Source: Dehalococcoidales bacterium (GTDB lineage Bacteria; Chloroflexota; Dehalococcoidia; Dehalococcoidales; Fen-1064). From it: a stretch of DNA of 64,000 bases. The stretch is taken from contig JAURWL010000222.1 of NCBI GenBank assembly GCA_030654965.1, positions 20,830 through 84,829 on the forward strand, written 5' to 3'. The notes under the pieces were generated by a model, which saw only the letters and a program-made list of their open reading frames with translations, had not been told where the DNA came from and did not search any database. Numbering within the stretch: position 1 is the stretch's first letter; each line of letters starts with the position of its first letter. This document shows, in pieces, positions 70 through 63,717 of the stretch. A program made the position numbers and the translations under genes.

Positions 70-291
70 TCATCTGGTTTCTTCGGCTATCTCCGCAAAG
101 AGTCGCAAAGTCTCTTCAGCTTCCTGCTGGTCGATGATGCTAATGGCATAGCCGGTATGCAGGAGGACATAGTCACCCACCTTTGCCTCCGGAGTAAGCC
201 AGAGGCTGATACGGCGGGTGATACCACCGATTTCGACCTCCGCCTCTTTACCTTCAATACTTTTGATGAGCGCCGGGATTGCCAGACACAT
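70..291 (-). CDS. hypC: [NiFe]-hydrogenase maturation chaperone HypC/HupF
   Basis: The 73-aa ORF begins MCLAIP, the HypC N-terminal Cys motif. It lies 12 nt downstream of hypF on the same strand. Confidence 0.9.
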   Translation of the reverse strand: MCLAIPALIKSIEGKEAEVEIGGITRRISLWLTPEAKVGDYVLLHTGYAISIIDQQEAEETLRLFAEIAEETR

Positions 292-303
292 TTTCCAATA
301 CCT

Positions 304-2607
304 CTATTTCATAAATTGTGCAATCACTGCCTGCCCCAGGGCAATACCGCCATCATTACAGGGGACAAGGTGATGGGTAAGAACCTGAAAGCCCGCTTTT
401 TCCAATTGTCTCCGGGTCAGTCTCAAAAGCAAACGGTTCTGGAAGACGCCGCCGCTGAGCGCCACCTGATTTAATGCTGTTTCCCGCGCAATTTCCTGAC
501 ACATTCTGACAGTTATCTTTGCGACCGTATTATGAAGTTTTGCCGAGATTTCAGACACAGCTACCTTATTCTTCACGTCTTCAATAATCGCCCGGAATAG
601 TTCTCCCAACCTGATGATTCTCTCACCCGATTCCACCTCAATGCAGAAAGGATAAACCAGTAGTTTATTTTCGTCAATACTATCAGGTGCCAGCATCTCC
701 AGTTCAATCGCCGCCTGTGCCTCATAATCTATTTCCTGACGCACACCGGCAATCGCCGCCACCGCATCGAAAAGCCGCCCGACGCTTGAAGTCAACGGGC
801 AGTTCACTTTCTGCTGGAGTTGTTTCTTTATTATACCAGTCTCTGTATGATTCAACTTCTGCGAGAGAGTATCAGATAGTGTAATATCGCCCAGCAGAGT
901 ATAGAGATAACCCAGCGCCATGCGGTAAGGCTTCTTGATAGCGGCAGCGCCACCGGGCATAGGCACATATTCGAATTGCCCCACCCTTTTAAAACCACGC
1001 CAGTCGGTTACCAGAAACTCGCCTCCCCAGATAGCGCCATCCGTACCATATCCCACGCCGTCAAACGCCACCCCGATGACAGGTCCCTCGACTTTGTTTT
1101 CCACGAGGCAACTGACGATGTGGGCATGATGGTGCTGGATAGTCACCAGCGGTAACTTCTTTTCCACTGCAAGATTGAGTGCATATTTACTCGGCAGGTA
1201 TTCGGGGTGGAGGTCGCAGGCAATAATTTCCGGCTCGATGCGGAAGAGCTTTTTGTATAACTCGATAGTATTCTCAAAGTGCTCCAGCGTCTCCTCGTTC
1301 TCCATATCCCCGATATGCTGACTGAGGAAAGCGTGGTTGTCACGGGTCAAGCAGAAGGTGTTTTTCAGTTCCGCCCCGCAGGCAAGAACCTCTTTCGAAT
1401 TGTACGGCAGAATAACAGGGTAGGGCGCATAGCCGCGAGCGCGCCGTAAAGCCACTGGTTGTCCGTCCTCTACCATGAAAACACTATCGTCGTAACGGGC
1501 ATAGATACCGCGGTTGTGAAGTATAAAATAGTCAGCAATACCCTTCAGTCTCGTGAGTGCCTCATCATTGTCTTTGGCAATTGGCTCTTCACTGAGGTTG
1601 CCGCTCGTCATAACTAGTGGAACGCCCGCCTCATTGAGCAGGAGATGGTGGAGAGGAGTATAGGGCAACATCGCGCCAAGGTAATCGAGGTTAGGTGCCA
1701 CGTTCGGGACAATATCTGAGTCGGCTGTTTTCCATTTCACCAGGACGATGGGGCTTTCCGGCGATTCCAAGAGATGTGCTTCTTCTGAAGAAATGGTACA
1801 GTGTTTCCTCGTTTCCGTGAGTGTTGCCAGCATCACCGCGAAGGGTTTGGCGGGACGCCGTTTTCTCTGACGGAGCAGGTTAACCACCTCAGGGTTTGTC
1901 GCATCGCAGGCAAGCTGAAATCCTCCGAGTCCCCTTACCGCCAGGATTTTGCCTTCTTTCAATAATTGGCTGGCTTTCTGGATGACATCGGTACAATCCA
2001 CTTTTTTCCCGTCTGCACCGACCAGTTCCAGTTGCGGCCCGCAAACAGGACAGGCATTGGGCTGGGCATGAAAACGGCGGTCGAGCGGGTCATGATATTC
2101 CTTTTCACACTGCGGGCACATTTTGAACTCGCGCATCGTGGTTTTGGGACGGTCGTAGGGAATGTCCTCAATGATGGTGAACCGAGGACCGCAGTTAGTG
2201 CAGTTGGTAAAAGGATAGCGAAAACGGCGGTCGGTGGAGTCGAAAATCTCCTGCCGGCAGTCCTGACAGGTGGCAATGTCCGGCGAGACTAATTGGTACA
2301 GACCTTCTTGACGCTCGCTTTCTTGAATCCGGAAGTCTCCATAGCCTTTCGGTGGAAACAATACAACCTGTATCTGCTCGATGCGAGCCTGTGGAGGAGC
2401 CTGCGCTTTGAGGTCATTCAGAAAGTCGTGTACCTCCGACTCCTTTCCTTCTACTTCAATTTCCACGTTGCCGGAGGTGTTCCGCACCCAACCGCGCAGG
2501 TGGTGCTGAGTTGCCAGACGGTAGATAAAAGGCCGGAACCCGACGCCCTGCACCACGCCATGGACACTGATAACAGCCCGTTTTTCCAGTTGTTTAATAG
2601 TGCTCAT
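304..2607 (-). CDS. hypF: Hydrogenase maturation carbamoyltransferase HypF
   Basis: 767 aa. It has an acylphosphatase-like N-terminus (VQGVGFRPF) and two paired CxxC zinc fingers (CQDC..CTNCGPRF; CPQC..CPVCGP). YrdC-like and Kae1-like domains follow. Confidence 0.95.
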   Translation of the reverse strand: MSTIKQLEKRAVISVHGVVQGVGFRPFIYRLATQHHLRGWVRNTSGNVEIEVEGKESEVHDFLNDLKAQAPPQARIEQIQVVLFPPKGYGDFRIQESERQEGLYQLVSPDIATCQDCRQEIFDSTDRRFRYPFTNCTNCGPRFTIIEDIPYDRPKTTMREFKMCPQCEKEYHDPLDRRFHAQPNACPVCGPQLELVGADGKKVDCTDVIQKASQLLKEGKILAVRGLGGFQLACDATNPEVVNLLRQRKRRPAKPFAVMLATLTETRKHCTISSEEAHLLESPESPIVLVKWKTADSDIVPNVAPNLDYLGAMLPYTPLHHLLLNEAGVPLVMTSGNLSEEPIAKDNDEALTRLKGIADYFILHNRGIYARYDDSVFMVEDGQPVALRRARGYAPYPVILPYNSKEVLACGAELKNTFCLTRDNHAFLSQHIGDMENEETLEHFENTIELYKKLFRIEPEIIACDLHPEYLPSKYALNLAVEKKLPLVTIQHHHAHIVSCLVENKVEGPVIGVAFDGVGYGTDGAIWGGEFLVTDWRGFKRVGQFEYVPMPGGAAAIKKPYRMALGYLYTLLGDITLSDTLSQKLNHTETGIIKKQLQQKVNCPLTSSVGRLFDAVAAIAGVRQEIDYEAQAAIELEMLAPDSIDENKLLVYPFCIEVESGERIIRLGELFRAIIEDVKNKVAVSEISAKLHNTVAKITVRMCQEIARETALNQVALSGGVFQNRLLLRLTRRQLEKAGFQVLTHHLVPCNDGGIALGQAVIAQFMK

Positions 2608-2863: not shown

Positions 2864-2896
2864 GTCAAAAAGAAAAGGGAGAGTTCAAACCCTCCC
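2864..2896 (-). terminator. Rho-independent terminator downstream of the nfu-like gene
   Basis: The minus strand reads GGGAGGGTTTGAACTCTCCC followed by TTTTCTTTTT. It lies 70-100 nt after the stop codon at 2969. Confidence 0.65.
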
Positions 2897-2968
2897 TGAT
2901 ACCATGCAATTATTCTACTTCAACCAGGAGAAGAGTCCAATTTTGCCGGATGCTGTCTTCAGGAACGA

Positions 2969-3202
2969 TTAGTCCTCCGCGACGGCAACGACCTCTTTCA
3001 CGGTAGGAATCTCCTGTTTGAGAATACGCTCGACGCCCATCCTGAGCGTCATCGTGGACATCGGTCAACCCGCGCAGTGCCCGGTGAGCCTGACACTGAC
3101 AACGCCATTCTTTACATTGACGAGTTCAATATCACCGCCGTCTGCCTGCAGAGCCGGGCGGATTTGCTCTAATACAGACTGTACCTTTTCTTTCTCTGTC
3201 AT
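2969..3202 (-). CDS. Nfu/NifU C-terminal-domain protein with in-frame UGA (candidate selenoprotein, C-x-x-U)
   Basis: Hand translation gives MTEKEKVQSVLEQIRPALQADGGDIELVNVKNGVVSVRLTGHCAG[UGA]PMSTMTLRMGVERILKQEIPTVKEVVAVAED. This matches the Nfu consensus (..IRPxLQxDGGDxELVxV..GVVxVxLxGACxxCPxSxxTLKxGxExxLKEEIPEVKEVxxV) on both sides of the TGA at 3065-3067. The TGA falls exactly on the second Cys of the CxxC motif. An AGGAGG sits 5 nt upstream of the ATG at 3202. The two halves are 45 and 31 aa, so they are absent from the 60-aa ORF track. Confidence 0.65.
3027..3054 (-). promoter_or_regulatory. Candidate bacterial SECIS hairpin
   Basis: The RNA CGAUGACGCU-CAGGAUG-GGCGUCGAGCG forms about 9 pairs including two G.U and one internal loop. 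The 7-nt apical loop contains GG and begins 20 nt after the UGA. Confidence 0.4.
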
Positions 3203-3271
3203 AGAAACCTCCTGTTAAGGGTATCAAAATTAAGGATAACAGAAATGGAGGGGGAGTGGCAAATTGAGCGC

Positions 3272-12430: not shown

Positions 12431-13120
12431 TTGAAATACTCAGCCATTATCTTCGACCTGTTCGGGACGCTAATTGACACATCATCGCGCGCGGAGTATG
12501 AGAGAGTACTCGGTGAAATGGCGGATGTGCTTGGCGCTCCGCGTGAGGATTTCACAAAGCTTTGGTTTGACACGTTTAACCTGCGGACAACGGGAGTGCT
12601 GATTAGCCCCGAGGGAAATATCGACTATATTTGCCGGCAACTCGGCGTCAGTTTTATGGATGCCCAGTTGAAACGGGCGTCTCGAATCAGATTTAATTTT
12701 ACTGTAGACTCGTTGAAACCACGTCCGGATGCGCTTGAAACGCTCGGTTTTCTCAGAGCAAACGGGTACAAAGTCGGGCTTATCAGTGATTGCTCTACGG
12801 AAGTACCGACCGCATGGAAAGACACACTCCTTGCGCCGTTGATTGATGTGCCGGTGTTCTCCTGTGTGGCGGGTGTGAAAAAGCCCGACCCGCGTATCTA
12901 CCTGATGGCTCTAGAACAATTAAATGTTAAACCACAAGATTGCCTGTACGTTGGTGACGGCAGCAGTCAAGAACTATCCGGGGCACAAAAGGTCGGGATG
13001 CACCCTATCCTGATTCGTGTGCCTCATGAGATGAATGAGGATGCGTACCGAATCGATGAAGAAGAATGGCAAGGACCTGCTATCTCCTCACTGAGAGAAG
13101 TGCTGAAATTAGTGCAATAA
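12431..13120 (+). CDS. HAD-superfamily hydrolase (subfamily IA, D-x-F/Y-G-T type)
   Basis: TTG start. Motif I is IIFDLFGTLID, motif II is GLISDCS and motif IV is LYVGDGSSQELSGAQKVGM. Confidence 0.8.
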   Translation: MKYSAIIFDLFGTLIDTSSRAEYERVLGEMADVLGAPREDFTKLWFDTFNLRTTGVLISPEGNIDYICRQLGVSFMDAQLKRASRIRFNFTVDSLKPRPDALETLGFLRANGYKVGLISDCSTEVPTAWKDTLLAPLIDVPVFSCVAGVKKPDPRIYLMALEQLNVKPQDCLYVGDGSSQELSGAQKVGMHPILIRVPHEMNEDAYRIDEEEWQGPAISSLREVLKLVQ

Positions 13121-13159
13121 CCTGTTTTGTCTATACCCGTGTCACATACTTTCTTTTAG

Positions 13160-13262
13160 TGTCATGCTGAGCCCTTCGTTACAGATAGCTCAGGTCCGAT
13201 TCCCAACTCATTGGGATACGGACTCGCGACAGAGTCGGAGATAAACTCCGCGAATGCATCTC
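13160..13262 (+). repeat. Dispersed intergenic element, family A (TGTCAT[T/G]CTGAG ... AAACTCCGCGAATG)
   Basis: Both ends match the reverse complement of 46582-46665. Short forms occur at 23665-23699 and 44271-44312. Confidence 0.7.
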
Positions 13263-13369
13263 GTTATTTGAGAAACTACATTCTTCATGGAATTTACTCT
13301 GAGTAACATTGAGGGGTTTCAGCTTGGCAAAGAGCCATTATTATACAACATACCCAGAACATGCGTTAT

Positions 13370-13396
13370 GGATTCCCAACTAAATCGGGAATGACA
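13370..13396 (-). repeat. Dispersed hairpin element, family B (TGTCATTCCCG-loop-GGGAATCC)
   Basis: The reverse complement, tgtcattcccgatttagttgggaatcc, compares with tgtcattcccgactagatcgggaatcc at 23111-23137. Confidence 0.7.
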
Positions 13397-13409
13397 AATA
13401 TGGTAGCGG

Positions 13410-14678
13410 CTAAGTCTGTGCTTCTATGAAACGTTCCCGCAGGGTATTAAGGGCGGCGAAAAATTCCTTCTGCATTACGCACAGTGTATACATGCCCTTC
13501 GGGGTAACATTGATGGTCCCGTTGTCCTTCACCAAACCGCATCTCCGGAAAAACGTCAGTTCCCACCACAGCTTCCGGTTGACATCATCATGAAATCGCT
13601 GGCGGAACCTCTGCGGGTCTAATGACATCCCGAAAAGCTTGGTGAGCATATAGTAGCGAAGATACTCCCGTTCCGAAAGTCGACGCCACCTCACGAGGGG
13701 TAGTTTGCCCTGTGAAATCAACTGGTCGTACCGTTCCAGCGAAAAGGTATTCACGAAGAAATCGCCGTTAAGAAATCCCACCGACCCCGCCCCCACCCCA
13801 ATGTAGTCGTCGTAATCAATGATGTACTCGTCAATCAACCGGTCGCCGCGGGAGAAACACCAGGCAGTGGATGCTTTGTAGCCGCCCTGGTATAGTTCGC
13901 GCAGGATAATATCGTAGAAGTCCTTTTCGCGTTTGGTGTCTACCTGATTGAACCGCCGTTCCAGTCGGGTCTTTTTATGCGGGGAGGGCATCAGCGGGTA
14001 GAAGGTCGCTTGGTCCAAGCCCAGCGCCTTGAAGGTAGCGACATCCTTCTCGAATTGTGCAGTGGTCTGGGTGGGAAAATTGAAGATGAAGTCGGCGTTA
14101 ACCGTATCGAACTGACCCTGCGCCATTTTCAGTTTTTCGATGGCTTCCTCGCCACTGCCCACCAACCGTCCCATCGCCCGCAATAAATCATTGTCAAAGC
14201 TCTGCACTCCGATGGAGAGCCGATTCACGCCCGCCTTTTTCAGCGCGTCCAAGGTCTCCTTGTTGATTTCGCGATGCGTTGTCTCCAGCGAGATTTGTTT
14301 GACATTAAAGCACCGCTTGAGGAAGTCAAGGAAATCAATCAGTTCCTCCATCATTACCGTAGGCGTACCGCCGCCAAAGTAGACATCGGAGAAGCGGAAG
14401 CCACGGTCAAAATAGAGTTCGACTTCTTTCTTCAGGTTGACAAAGTACCGTCGCGCCTTAGTTTCATCGAGCAGGTAGCGATTGAAACAACAAAAGGGAC
14501 AGAGCGTGCGGCAGAAGGGGATATGCACATAGAGAGAAGCCCAGTCGTCACGCCCGGCTTTCTCTTTAGGGACTTGTGGTTCGGGAGGATTAGCCTGTAA
14601 CTGGAGAAATTTCTTGCCCTCCCGCCTTGTCACCCAGCCGGCAAAACGGGCATCTAATGTTGAATCAGCGCTCATCAA
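13410..14678 (-). CDS. Radical SAM, HemN/coproporphyrinogen-III-oxidase-like family
   Basis: 422 aa. YVHIPFCRTLCPFCCFN is the CxxxCxxC motif. GGGTPT and a HemN_C-like C-terminus are present. Confidence 0.8.
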   Translation of the reverse strand: MMSADSTLDARFAGWVTRREGKKFLQLQANPPEPQVPKEKAGRDDWASLYVHIPFCRTLCPFCCFNRYLLDETKARRYFVNLKKEVELYFDRGFRFSDVYFGGGTPTVMMEELIDFLDFLKRCFNVKQISLETTHREINKETLDALKKAGVNRLSIGVQSFDNDLLRAMGRLVGSGEEAIEKLKMAQGQFDTVNADFIFNFPTQTTAQFEKDVATFKALGLDQATFYPLMPSPHKKTRLERRFNQVDTKREKDFYDIILRELYQGGYKASTAWCFSRGDRLIDEYIIDYDDYIGVGAGSVGFLNGDFFVNTFSLERYDQLISQGKLPLVRWRRLSEREYLRYYMLTKLFGMSLDPQRFRQRFHDDVNRKLWWELTFFRRCGLVKDNGTINVTPKGMYTLCVMQKEFFAALNTLRERFIEAQT

Positions 14679-14785
14679 CTATTAATAATAACAGCTATGT
14701 AAAGATTTCGGTAATTTGAATTATACGAGTCCGGAATCACCCCGGTTAGAGACTCGTTCTTCGCTTCGCTCTTTGAAAGGGCAGG

Positions 14786-16147
14786 TCACCTTTTTTGCTT
14801 CCAGACCGTGCCCTGCGGCGTATCCTCAAGGATGACACCCAGTTCAGTGAGCTTGTTCCGTATTTCATCGGCAAGCTGGAATTGCTTCGCCTCGCGGAGC
14901 CGCTTCCGGGTGGCAATGAGCAGTTCGATAAACGGGGCGGCATCACCCGCCTGCCTCTCCGCTTCTTTCAGCGTCAATCCTAATATGCCCGCCAGTTCAC
15001 GGAGCGTAGCGCGTGCTTCTGACGTGTCTTTTCCCTCATCATTACCGCGGTTGATTTCCCGCGCCATGTCGAAGAGCGTGGCAATTGCCTGCGGTGTGCT
15101 GAAGTCATCGTCCATGAATTCGATAAAGCACTGGCGGTAGGATGATGCATCTATCTTTTCGCCTAATGTCCTGCCCTTCTCGGTCAGCGCCTGTCGCAGT
15201 CGTTCCGCACCCCGCTCCGCCGCCTCGATTGCCTCTTCGGAATAGGTAAGCGGATTGCGGTAATAGGAGCCAAGAATGAAGAGGCGGATACCATCGGCGC
15301 TGTATTTCTGGAGCGCATCCCGGATGGTAATCAGGTTGCCCAGTGATTTGCTCATTTTCTCCGCGCCCATTTGCAGGAGACCGTTGTGCATCCAGTACTT
15401 CACGAATGGTTTTTTCCCGGTGAAGCATTCCGATTGGGCGATTTCGTTTTCATGGTGGGGGAAGATGAGGTCCTGTCCGCCGCCGTGGATATCAATCTGT
15501 TCGCCGAGAAATTTAATGGACATGGCGCTGCACTCGATGTGCCAGCCGGGTCGGCCTTTGCCCCAGGGGCTGTCCCATGATGGCTCACCGGGTTTGGCGG
15601 CTTTCCACAAAACAAAATCCATCGGGTGCTCTTTCTCTTCACCCGGCTCGATGCGCGCTCCCGCCATCATCATATCGAGTGTGCGGTGGGACAGTTTTCC
15701 ATAGTCAGGCATTTTATTAACACGGAAATAGACACTACCCTTCGCTTCGTAAGCGTAACCCCGGTCAATCAACCCGTGCGTCGTGCCGATGATTTCGGGG
15801 ATGGTCTCGGTTGCCTTCGGGGTAAAGTGCGGTCGCAAGATATTGAGCGCATCCATGTCCTCAAAATAGCGTATCGTGAATTTCTCGGTGAGTTCACGCA
15901 CAGAAATACCCTGACGGTTCGAGTAATTGATGATGTTGTCTTCGATATCGGTGACGTTTTCAACGTGCTTCACTTTATAGCCACGGAACTCCAGGTAGCG
16001 ACGCACCATATCGAAGGTGATGTAGCTCATCGCATGCCCGATGTGCGCGTCGGCATAGGGATTGACTCCGCAGACATACATCGTCACGACGTCGCCGTGC
16101 GGCTTGAACTCTTCCTTTTGTCCTGAGAGAGTACTGAAGATTTTCAT
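14786..16147 (-). CDS. cysS: Cysteine--tRNA ligase
   Basis: HIGHAMSY is the HIGH motif and KMSKSLGN is the KMSKS motif. WHIECS is also present. Confidence 0.95.
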
Positions 16148-62718: not shown

Positions 62719-63717
62719 TTAAATCAGGTCGCTGATTTTTATCAGGCTCTGGTAGTCCATGACGGTGCTCATGGCATGGCTGTCAGCTTCGATACCGGCT
62801 TCTTCAGCCGCCGCTACCGGATTCAATCCACCGATGAGGACGACACCCATACGGTTAAGTTCCACGGGGATTTCACAGACGGGTTCGCTGGCGTTGCCCA
62901 TGATGAGCATGCCATCCATCCCAGCCCGCTTCAGTTTTACTATGACATCCTCGACAATGGGACGGCAGAGAGCAGGAATCTCCCGGTAGTTCGCAAGGAT
63001 TTTACCTTCGCTTTTTCGAGCAACATTGCCTACGGAGGTCATCCGGGCGCGGATGAAAACTTCAGAGGGGTCCATTGAAGAACCGGCATATTGAATCAAC
63101 TCTACAAACCGTATTGGTTTATTATTTCGAATCTCCAGAATACCCCCGAAGCGGGAATCCGTGGGGACACCGGCTTTGAGCAGACAGCCATTGATGACAA
63201 TACTGCAGACGGTTGCCAGCGCCACTTTCCCCTTGGGGACAATAGCATCGCCAAAGCGTTCCCCTTCTCTGGCGGTAGCAACGAGGTCGCTGACACACCA
63301 TCCCTTTTCAAAGACAGGTTTCATAATACGGAGGGCTTCGCCAAATTTGTCTTTGGGGAAGTAGGAGATGTTGACGGGTATCAAGCCGGCGCGCTTTTCC
63401 AGGTCGAAGTTGGTGCGGAAGGCGAGCAGTTCAATACGGGAGATGGCGAACCCAACCTTGTCCCGGACAAGGGCATCTTTCAGTTCTTCAATACCGGCTT
63501 CGGTGATGAGCCGACCATCCCTGCCGACGAGTTGGGTTAAGCCGCGCTCATCCATCAGCTTGAGGTGGTAACGGACAGCGCGCTCGCCGAGTTCTACACC
63601 CAGAGCTTTTATTTGCTGGGCGATAACACGTGCGCCGAGGGGCACTTTGGAATCTCGGAGGATTTTGAGGATAGCGATGACTTTACGTTTAACTTCCTGT
63701 ATATCCGAACCAATCAT
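62719..63717 (-). CDS. nrpR: NrpR-family regulator (winged HTH + one NrpR/DUF128 domain)
   Basis: 332 aa. The N-terminus ILKILRDSKVPLGARVIAQQIKALGVELGERAVRYHLKLMDERGL matches the NrpR HTH as recalled (..LGERAVRYHL..). It ends 15 nt upstream of hisF. Confidence 0.75.
   Translation of the reverse strand: MIGSDIQEVKRKVIAILKILRDSKVPLGARVIAQQIKALGVELGERAVRYHLKLMDERGLTQLVGRDGRLITEAGIEELKDALVRDKVGFAISRIELLAFRTNFDLEKRAGLIPVNISYFPKDKFGEALRIMKPVFEKGWCVSDLVATAREGERFGDAIVPKGKVALATVCSIVINGCLLKAGVPTDSRFGGILEIRNNKPIRFVELIQYAGSSMDPSEVFIRARMTSVGNVARKSEGKILANYREIPALCRPIVEDVIVKLKRAGMDGMLIMGNASEPVCEIPVELNRMGVVLIGGLNPVAAAEEAGIEADSHAMSTVMDYQSLIKISDLI

Follow-up and report, generated by a model that had tools for sequence, protein, structure and literature searches.

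The subject of this report is a small nfu gene on the minus strand of a 64,000-nt stretch of DNA from Dehalococcoidales bacterium (assembly GCA_030654965.1, contig JAURWL010000222.1, positions 20,830 to 84,829; hereafter the window). It is very probably an intact, expressed gene for a single-domain Nfu iron-sulfur (Fe-S) cluster carrier, whose in-frame UGA (3065-3067) is decoded as selenocysteine (Sec, U) to give C-x-x-U for the C-x-x-C of the family. The sequences show directly that the reading frame is intact, that the UGA at the position of a ligand cysteine is conserved, that a hairpin resembling a selenocysteine insertion sequence (SECIS) covaries, and that purifying selection acts on both halves of the product. 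A candidate selenoprotein had been proposed here in a first-pass annotation made from the letters of the window, and this proposal is supported by the comparative sequence analysis described below.

Gene layout and product

Read from the ATG at 3202, the gene (Sec-nfu) runs through 45 sense codons, a TGA (3067-3065) and 31 further sense codons to a TAA (2971-2969). This is the layout described in the first-pass annotation, including a Shine-Dalgarno (SD) sequence with a 5-nt spacer, and an identical translation was obtained. The intrinsic terminator reported to follow the gene was also recovered, as a 9-bp stem at 2897-2876 followed by TTTTCTTTTT with its T-run.

For family assignment, the joined product was searched with U written as C. 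The NifU-like profile PF01106 was matched at positions 1-67 of 67 (residues 7-72, E 1.5e-30, 105.6 bits; gathering score 27). Since the match covers the whole profile, homology spans the TGA, in line with the earlier recognition of an Nfu domain on both sides of it. In the cysteine motif of the product, the first Cys is C43 and the second position is the UGA (U46). Sec at U46 would be a chemical analogue of the second Cys without being the residue by which the family motif is defined. Scores of 48.1 bits vs a cut-off of 269 for the NfuA model (TIGR03341) and of 65.2 bits vs 273 for the model of NifU proper (TIGR02000) were below threshold. The predicted product is a single-domain Nfu, neither NfuA nor NifU proper. 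The IMG label 'NfuA' for fragments of such genes is, judged by domain content, over-specific, as the C-terminal Nfu domain alone is present. The closest solved structure was 2z51 (AtCnfU; E 1.7e-28), and the CxxC position aligns with 2z51 and 1xhj.

Recurrence of the TGA in relatives and metagenomes

A reference search with one genome per species yielded 80 loci with 81 homologous genes. The codon aligned to the window TGA is TGC in 47, TGT in 32 and TGA in 2 of these genes; the claim that the TGA occupies the place of the second Cys of CxxC is thereby borne out, with a cysteine codon in 79 of 81 homologues. The two TGA homologues, L001 (91% identity) and L002 (80%), are from metagenome-assembled genomes (MAGs) of Dehalococcoidales, and their conservation is unbroken past the TGA. 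Whether orthologues carry TGC or TGA, and whether they are conserved beyond it, had been left as a question in the first-pass annotation. These relatives answer it with TGA at the same codon and conservation that carries on. The DNA of locus L081 (94% identity), to which the top protein-database match P0001 belongs, carries TGA too. For P0001 (L081 443-676), IMG gives a full-length product of 77 aa that has Trp in place of Sec; this Trp is evidently an artefact of code-4 gene calling on a short (1.1-kb) contig.

Metagenomes were scanned with the pattern G-x-C-x-x-TGA-P-...-T-[LMIV]-x-x-G-[IV]-E. The scan returned 73 contigs, 72 with clear Nfu open reading frames (ORFs) having U at the second Cys and one with a chance match. 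Nearly all of the 72 ORFs encode 72-81 residues with a normal C-terminus, and a few end at a contig edge. They form about 12 clades, including GHCAGU-PMSTMTLRMG (to which the window gene belongs), QGHCAGU-PMSQMTLRMG and KGACGGU-PMSQMTLTRG. Sequencing error, which had been named earlier as a possible source of the TGA, is excluded by more than 70 independent contigs with the same TGA. The pairwise ratio of nonsynonymous to synonymous differences (pN/pS) was 0.33 for codons beyond the hairpin vs 0.30 upstream of the UGA. This likeness indicates that selection at the protein level acts on the last 31 residues as it does on those before the UGA. TGA also serves as terminator of 13 of the 52 large window ORFs and ends some Sec-nfu genes (L094, L099), which argues for a standard code with context-dependent recoding of the UGA.

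In public databases, Sec-nfu is stored as 43-45-aa fragments named 'Fe-S cluster biogenesis protein NfuA', some of them on 46-155 contigs, and the NCBI members of the protein clusters are 45-mers. Owing to this truncation, too few selenoproteins would be counted in Dehalococcoidia and in other anaerobes of sediment and peat. At L166 (1131-1223), the part after the UGA was called as a gene of its own (30 aa, weak NifU match), so that both halves are scattered in databases. P0150, a 43-aa Nfu fragment, shares its 90%-identity cluster with P0159, a 483-aa JGI protein named 'trimethylamine--corrinoid protein Co-methyltransferase', which is probably a fused or mis-called gene.

The hairpin after the UGA

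Past the UGA, a hairpin can be formed in the register U17-A25/U29-G37 (U of UGA = 1), with 9 bp and the loop GGA or with 8 bp and the loop AGGAU. It begins 13 nt past the UGA, and its loop begins 21-22 nt past it. The hairpin of about 9 bp with a GG-containing loop in the first-pass annotation was recovered; its start (given as 11 nt) and loop position (given as +20) were off by about 2 nt. The bacterial SECIS model has a loop of 3-9 nt whose first two positions contain G, a stem of 4 bp or more, a UGA-loop spacing of 16-37 nt and a minimum free energy (MFE) of -7.5 kcal/mol or lower (PMC13188914). With the loop GGA (or AGGAU), a 9-bp stem, a spacing of 22 nt and -12.7 kcal/mol, the window hairpin agrees with the model in all four respects. 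The same agreement was found for 48 of 57 Sec-type vs 13 of 77 Cys-type sequences. The earlier suggestion of a SECIS is favoured by this fit and by the covariation described next.

For covariation analysis, 26 distinct sequences with this 'type-1' hairpin were used, and 98.6% of their cells were paired. Pair 21/33, which joins the third positions of the Thr and Gly codons and is the only hairpin pair made of two four-fold degenerate sites, is G-C in 15, C-G in 8 and A-U in 3 sequences, with no mismatches. Another pair is G-C in 21, G-U in 3 and A-U in 1. When the 3' partners were slid by 1 to 3 columns as a control, pairing went down to 31-62%. In a comparison of the window with L001 and L002, variation affects 74% of codons 1-39, and the sole changes in the 12 codons past the UGA are ACG to ACC and GGC to GGG. 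These are mutually compensating and turn a G-C pair into C-G in GACGCUC-AGGAU-GGGCGUC. An alternative MFE helix, obtained by folding the post-UGA region alone, was rejected; it is broken by the C/G double change of L002, which preserves the hairpin initially described. Over the loop, LRMG or LTRG is encoded in Sec forms vs LKMG in Cys forms. The putative SECIS lies within coding sequence and would constrain amino acids along with synonymous sites, as seen in the change of K to R over the loop.

In the KGACGGU clade (L083, L087, L089, L102, L111, L123 and others), the hairpin has another register, with the loop GUG and 25-nt spacing. One consensus structure for all clades was ruled out by the two registers (AGGAU at +21/22; GUG at +25) together with a few divergent hairpins. 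An Rfam scan of the window at gathering thresholds gave no match.

Sec and Cys forms

In a rough neighbour-joining tree built from the 69-residue domain, Sec and Cys forms are interspersed with at least 12 state changes, a number that is indicative only, as the alignment is short. The Cys (TGT) orthologue P0033 (L155 4001-4219; also L156-L158) has 99% protein identity to the Sec gene of L088. It occurs in four samples, in the same PPDK-nfu-hycI context as L088 and with a fully intact hairpin. This hairpin is a putative fossil SECIS, as expected after a recent Sec-to-Cys change, and its presence in a 99%-identical Cys orthologue argues that Sec and Cys are functionally interchangeable at the site.

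At L002 (445-672 and 1002-1235), a Sec-type nfu and a Cys-type paralogue directly downstream of it stand in tandem upstream of hypF. L002 is the only one among 75 Sec loci with such a tandem, which may consist of a selenium-dependent nfu plus a selenium-independent backup. The L002 paralogues and the 99%-identical L088 and P0033 would be ready Cys/Sec pairs for the effect of selenium on cluster transfer and stress tolerance.

Proposed decoding of the UGA and alternative readings

The hairpin, 13-34 nt past the UGA, would act as a bacterial SECIS and recruit SelB with Sec-tRNA(Sec) to a ribosome paused at the UGA. After Sec insertion, translation would run 31 further codons to the TAA. Nfu proteins form dimers with one labile [4Fe-4S] or [2Fe-2S] cluster held between the motifs of the subunits and passed to client apoproteins. 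By analogy with the family and with homologous structures, each subunit of a Sec-Nfu dimer would bind the cluster with C43 and U46. A selenolate would then take the place of one thiolate in each subunit, which is expected to alter the kinetics of cluster binding or release, or oxidant tolerance.

Several observations weigh against selenocysteine decoding. tRNA-Sec was not found in the 64-kb window (ARAGORN, Rfam scan) or in the fetched flanks (ARAGORN, 33 loci). selA, selB and selD were absent among 30 window ORFs scanned with Pfam, all ORFs of selA/selB/selD-like size included; the scan identified housekeeping genes only (hypC/F, gatB, cysS, tilS, dxr, rseP, ispG, dnaE, rpsB, nuoF-like, NrpR-like). 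No sel gene is listed in the Pfam-annotated context of L159/L160 either. An unfiltered scan for ORFs joined across a TGA gave too much noise; with a filter for redox motifs, only nfu was returned from the window and about 0.4 Mb of flanks. As to the hairpin, its codons are those for T-L-x-x-G-V, amino acids that partly predispose to pairing, and the window hairpin alone is no more stable than shuffled sequence (z = -0.65). By itself this fold is not distinctive, and it is the comparison with related sequences that gives the hairpin its significance. The lower local folding energy of Sec-type sequences (-10.7 kcal/mol vs -4.9 kcal/mol in Cys-type sequences, p ~ 2e-17) speaks for a SECIS, with p-values here inflated by the phylogenetic relatedness of the sequences and this one also by a small difference in G+C. 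For the type-2 hairpin, that of the GACGGU clade, covariation gives weaker support.

Use of selenocysteine is documented for related organisms. Two Dehalococcoidia genomes are within the ten most selenoprotein-rich bacteria in BSepDB (PMC13326102), and Sec-containing formate dehydrogenases were reported from Dehalococcoidia single-cell genomes (PMC5736913). This support applies to the class Dehalococcoidia rather than to the window's own genome.

An unlikely alternative, under which the gene would still encode a genuine selenoprotein, is that C-x-x-U forms a redox-active selenenylsulfide couple, as in a thioredoxin-like reductase, rather than ligating a cluster. Among the substrates proposed for it are persulfides or disulfides on Hyp proteins or Fe-S clients. 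Redox motifs of the CxxU or UxxC type are present in most catalogued bacterial selenoproteins, which are thought to be oxidoreductases (PMC13188914). A gene for a DoxX/thioredoxin fusion lies inside the adjoining hyp cluster of L159/L160, and the other large clade adjoins the NO/oxidative-stress genes YgbA_NO and hemerythrin. In characterised Nfu proteins, however, CxxC is the Fe-S cluster ligand, and homologues have been solved (2z51, 1xhj, 2m5o). There was also no Sec-specific sequence change beyond those explained by the SECIS, and Sec has precedents in Fe-S carrier and Fe-S binding proteins, both HesB-like and 2Fe-2S CopZ-like (PMC13188914).

It is very improbable that the TGA is a true stop, leaving a pseudogene or an N-terminal product of 45 aa, and perhaps a split Nfu through re-initiation at the ATG two codons on. 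That ATG (Met48) lies 3 nt past the TGA, 43-45-aa 'NfuA' fragments and the separate 30-aa C-terminal call of L166 are found in databases, and no Sec machinery was found in the window. The Met after Pro, however, belongs to the family motif, Cys forms included, and either fragment would be without one of the two cluster ligands. The same TGA with an intact downstream frame occurs on more than 70 contigs of about 12 clades, pN/pS downstream equals that upstream, and the covarying hairpin is specific to TGA-bearing forms.

Insertion of a standard amino acid (Trp, Gly or Cys) at the UGA, by a reassigned code or by SECIS-independent near-cognate read-through, has a similarly slight chance. It is suggested by the W in the IMG translation of P0001, which is set aside as a code-4 call, the DNA of its 1.1-kb contig reading TGA. 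The use of TGA as a stop in window ORFs and some Sec-nfu genes speaks against reassignment, a protein with Trp or Gly in place of a conserved metal-binding Cys would not function, and the SECIS-type hairpin would be left unexplained. That a TGC/TGT codon appears as TGA through a fault of sequencing or assembly, or through a nonsense polymorphism at strain level, is effectively refuted: TGA is one base from either codon and close Cys-type orthologues are known (P0033), but reference MAGs and assemblies from JGI, ENA and Logan, covering many samples, show the TGA independently of one another, a single truncated fragment is present on 155 contigs, and a co-evolving RNA structure is specific to the genes with TGA.

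Genomic neighbourhood and possible clients

Table 1. Features of the nfu region of the window (positions of the window; all on the minus strand).
Feature	Position	Strand	Description
nfu(Sec)	2969..3202	minus	77 codons including one Sec-UGA, then TAA; PF01106 match
nfu(Sec) product			Before-U-after: MTEKEKVQSVLEQIRPALQADGGDIELVNVKNGVVSVRLTGHCAG-U-PMSTMTLRMGVERILKQEIPTVKEVVAVAED
In-frame TGA, taken as Sec codon	3065..3067	minus	Replaces second Cys of G-x-C-x-x-C-P
Shine-Dalgarno AGGAGG	3208..3213	minus	5 nt from ATG; invariant in five aligned genes
Bacterial SECIS-type hairpin (candidate)	3026..3055	minus	Core helix 3051-3043 / 3039-3031; apical loop (A)GGA(U) 3043-3039
Intrinsic terminator of nfu	2866..2897	minus	9-bp G+C-rich stem, 4-nt loop, T-run; kept in L001 and L094
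hypF	304..2607	minus	Carbamoyltransferase of [NiFe]-hydrogenase maturation; separate transcription unit from nfu
hypC	70..291	minus	PF01455, E 3e-26

The position of nfu upstream of hypF-hypC on the same strand (Table 1), with a terminator and a repeat-laden spacer of about 360 nt between, was correctly described in the first-pass annotation; the spacer measures 361 nt and contains three 17-nt direct repeats. A part of it (2680-2830) is an insertion of about 150 nt that is not in the orthologous spacers of L001 and L094. The insertion holds the direct repeats AGGGTTCAYCCTGAAGG (2761-2815) as well as an inverted repeat of 11 nt (2686-2696 / 2819-2829), and may be a small mobile or repeat element. 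At the far end of the window (62719-63717, minus strand), an NrpR-type regulator (PF01995 + HTH_12) is encoded beside a glutamate-synthase-domain gene. The NrpR family is best known from archaeal nitrogen regulation.

In the GHCAGU clades, hypF is located downstream of Sec-nfu in 19 loci and is followed by hypC, hypD and hypE; some of these loci have a HycI-type maturation protease between nfu and hypF. For the L001-lineage contigs L159/L160, Pfam annotation gave the order nfu(45-aa fragment)-hypF-hypC-DoxX/thioredoxin fusion-hypD-NUDIX-hypE-hypA-hypB. The MauE/DoxX/thioredoxin fusion (between hypC and hypD) and the NUDIX hydrolase (between hypD and hypE) of these contigs (12964-15455) are unusual inserts for a hyp operon. 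The KGACGGU clade has a YgbA_NO-family gene on one side and genes for hemerythrin, a COX1-like small membrane protein or a cupin on the other, which suggests that its predicted Sec-Nfu serves in Fe-S repair or under nitrosative or oxidative stress.

From the conserved proximity to hypFCDEAB, with or without HycI, the Fe-S components of hydrogenase maturation are proposed as clients. The [4Fe-4S] cluster of HypD or the hydrogenase small subunit would be likely recipients. Co-transcription of nfu and hypF as an operon was considered and is ruled out by the conserved terminator between them; with its own SD and terminator, nfu would be transcribed separately from hypF. Cys-type nfu genes of related Dehalococcoidia are likewise upstream of hypF (L003, L006, L011), which indicates that the linkage is older than the Sec change. 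Given the terminator and this shared linkage, the tie to hydrogenase maturation is only guilt by association.

Only tentatively, and with some doubt, can a wider proposal be made from these comparisons: that Sec-Nfu is an uncatalogued widespread selenoprotein family whose selenolate ligates a transferable Fe-S cluster, that it has repeatedly arisen from, or reverted to, Cys-Nfu, and that it is a dedicated donor for [NiFe]-hydrogenase maturation in Dehalococcoidales. If true, selenium availability would be linked through this donor to hydrogen metabolism in anoxic sediments and peat. The location of nfu beside hypFCDEAB in any case offers a hypothesis for Fe-S delivery to hydrogenase maturation in Dehalococcoidales.

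Comparison with known systems

Sec-Nfu is a new candidate selenoprotein family, in which ordinary bacterial Sec recoding would take place inside a well-known protein family. New bacterial selenoprotein families still turn up regularly, and surprise at this one is moderate. Literature full text combining NifU or Nfu with selenoprotein gave nothing relevant, and NCBIfam release 20 has no dedicated Sec-Nfu model. In Table 1 of a 2026 review, which lists 119 prokaryotic selenoprotein families and subfamilies, there is no NifU, Nfu or PF01106 entry (PMC13188914). Closest to Sec-Nfu in that table are the HesB-like A-type carrier, a protein entered as 'Fe-S cluster domain' and 2Fe-2S proteins of the CopZ/BFD-like kind (PMC13188914). 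These related selenoproteins share with Sec-Nfu a Sec in or beside a metal-cluster-binding Cys motif and the Cys/Sec-alignment logic by which they were recognised; their domains differ, none being PF01106.

With the canonical bacterial SECIS, of which E. coli fdhF is the prototype, the window hairpin shares its location in the coding region directly 3' of the UGA and a small apical loop with GG, of the pattern N1-G-G-N-N2. It has no sequence similarity to the fdhF SECIS itself.

The Nfu / NifU C-terminal domain carriers, such as Arabidopsis CnfU/NFU2 (2z51), the S. epidermidis protein (1xhj) and human NFU1 (2m5o), share with the window product the full-length domain and the G-x-C-x-x-[C]-P-x-S position. 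Single-domain Cys-type Nfu proteins of Dehalococcoidia and many anaerobes have 60-90% identity to it. All these carriers differ from the window gene in that its second ligand Cys is a UGA and its SECIS-type hairpin lies in the codons for T-L-R-M-G-V-E.

The HesB-like selenoprotein (TIGR01911) is likewise an Fe-S assembly or carrier protein of anaerobes, with Sec for a conserved Cys thought to bind the cluster, and has been experimentally verified (PMC13188914 Table 1). It has the IscA/HesB fold and a UxGP motif, whereas the window gene encodes an Nfu with CxxUP, and family scans of the window product gave no HesB/IscA match. Beside the HesB-like selenoprotein, Sec-Nfu would provide a natural selenolate ligand in a late-acting Fe-S carrier.

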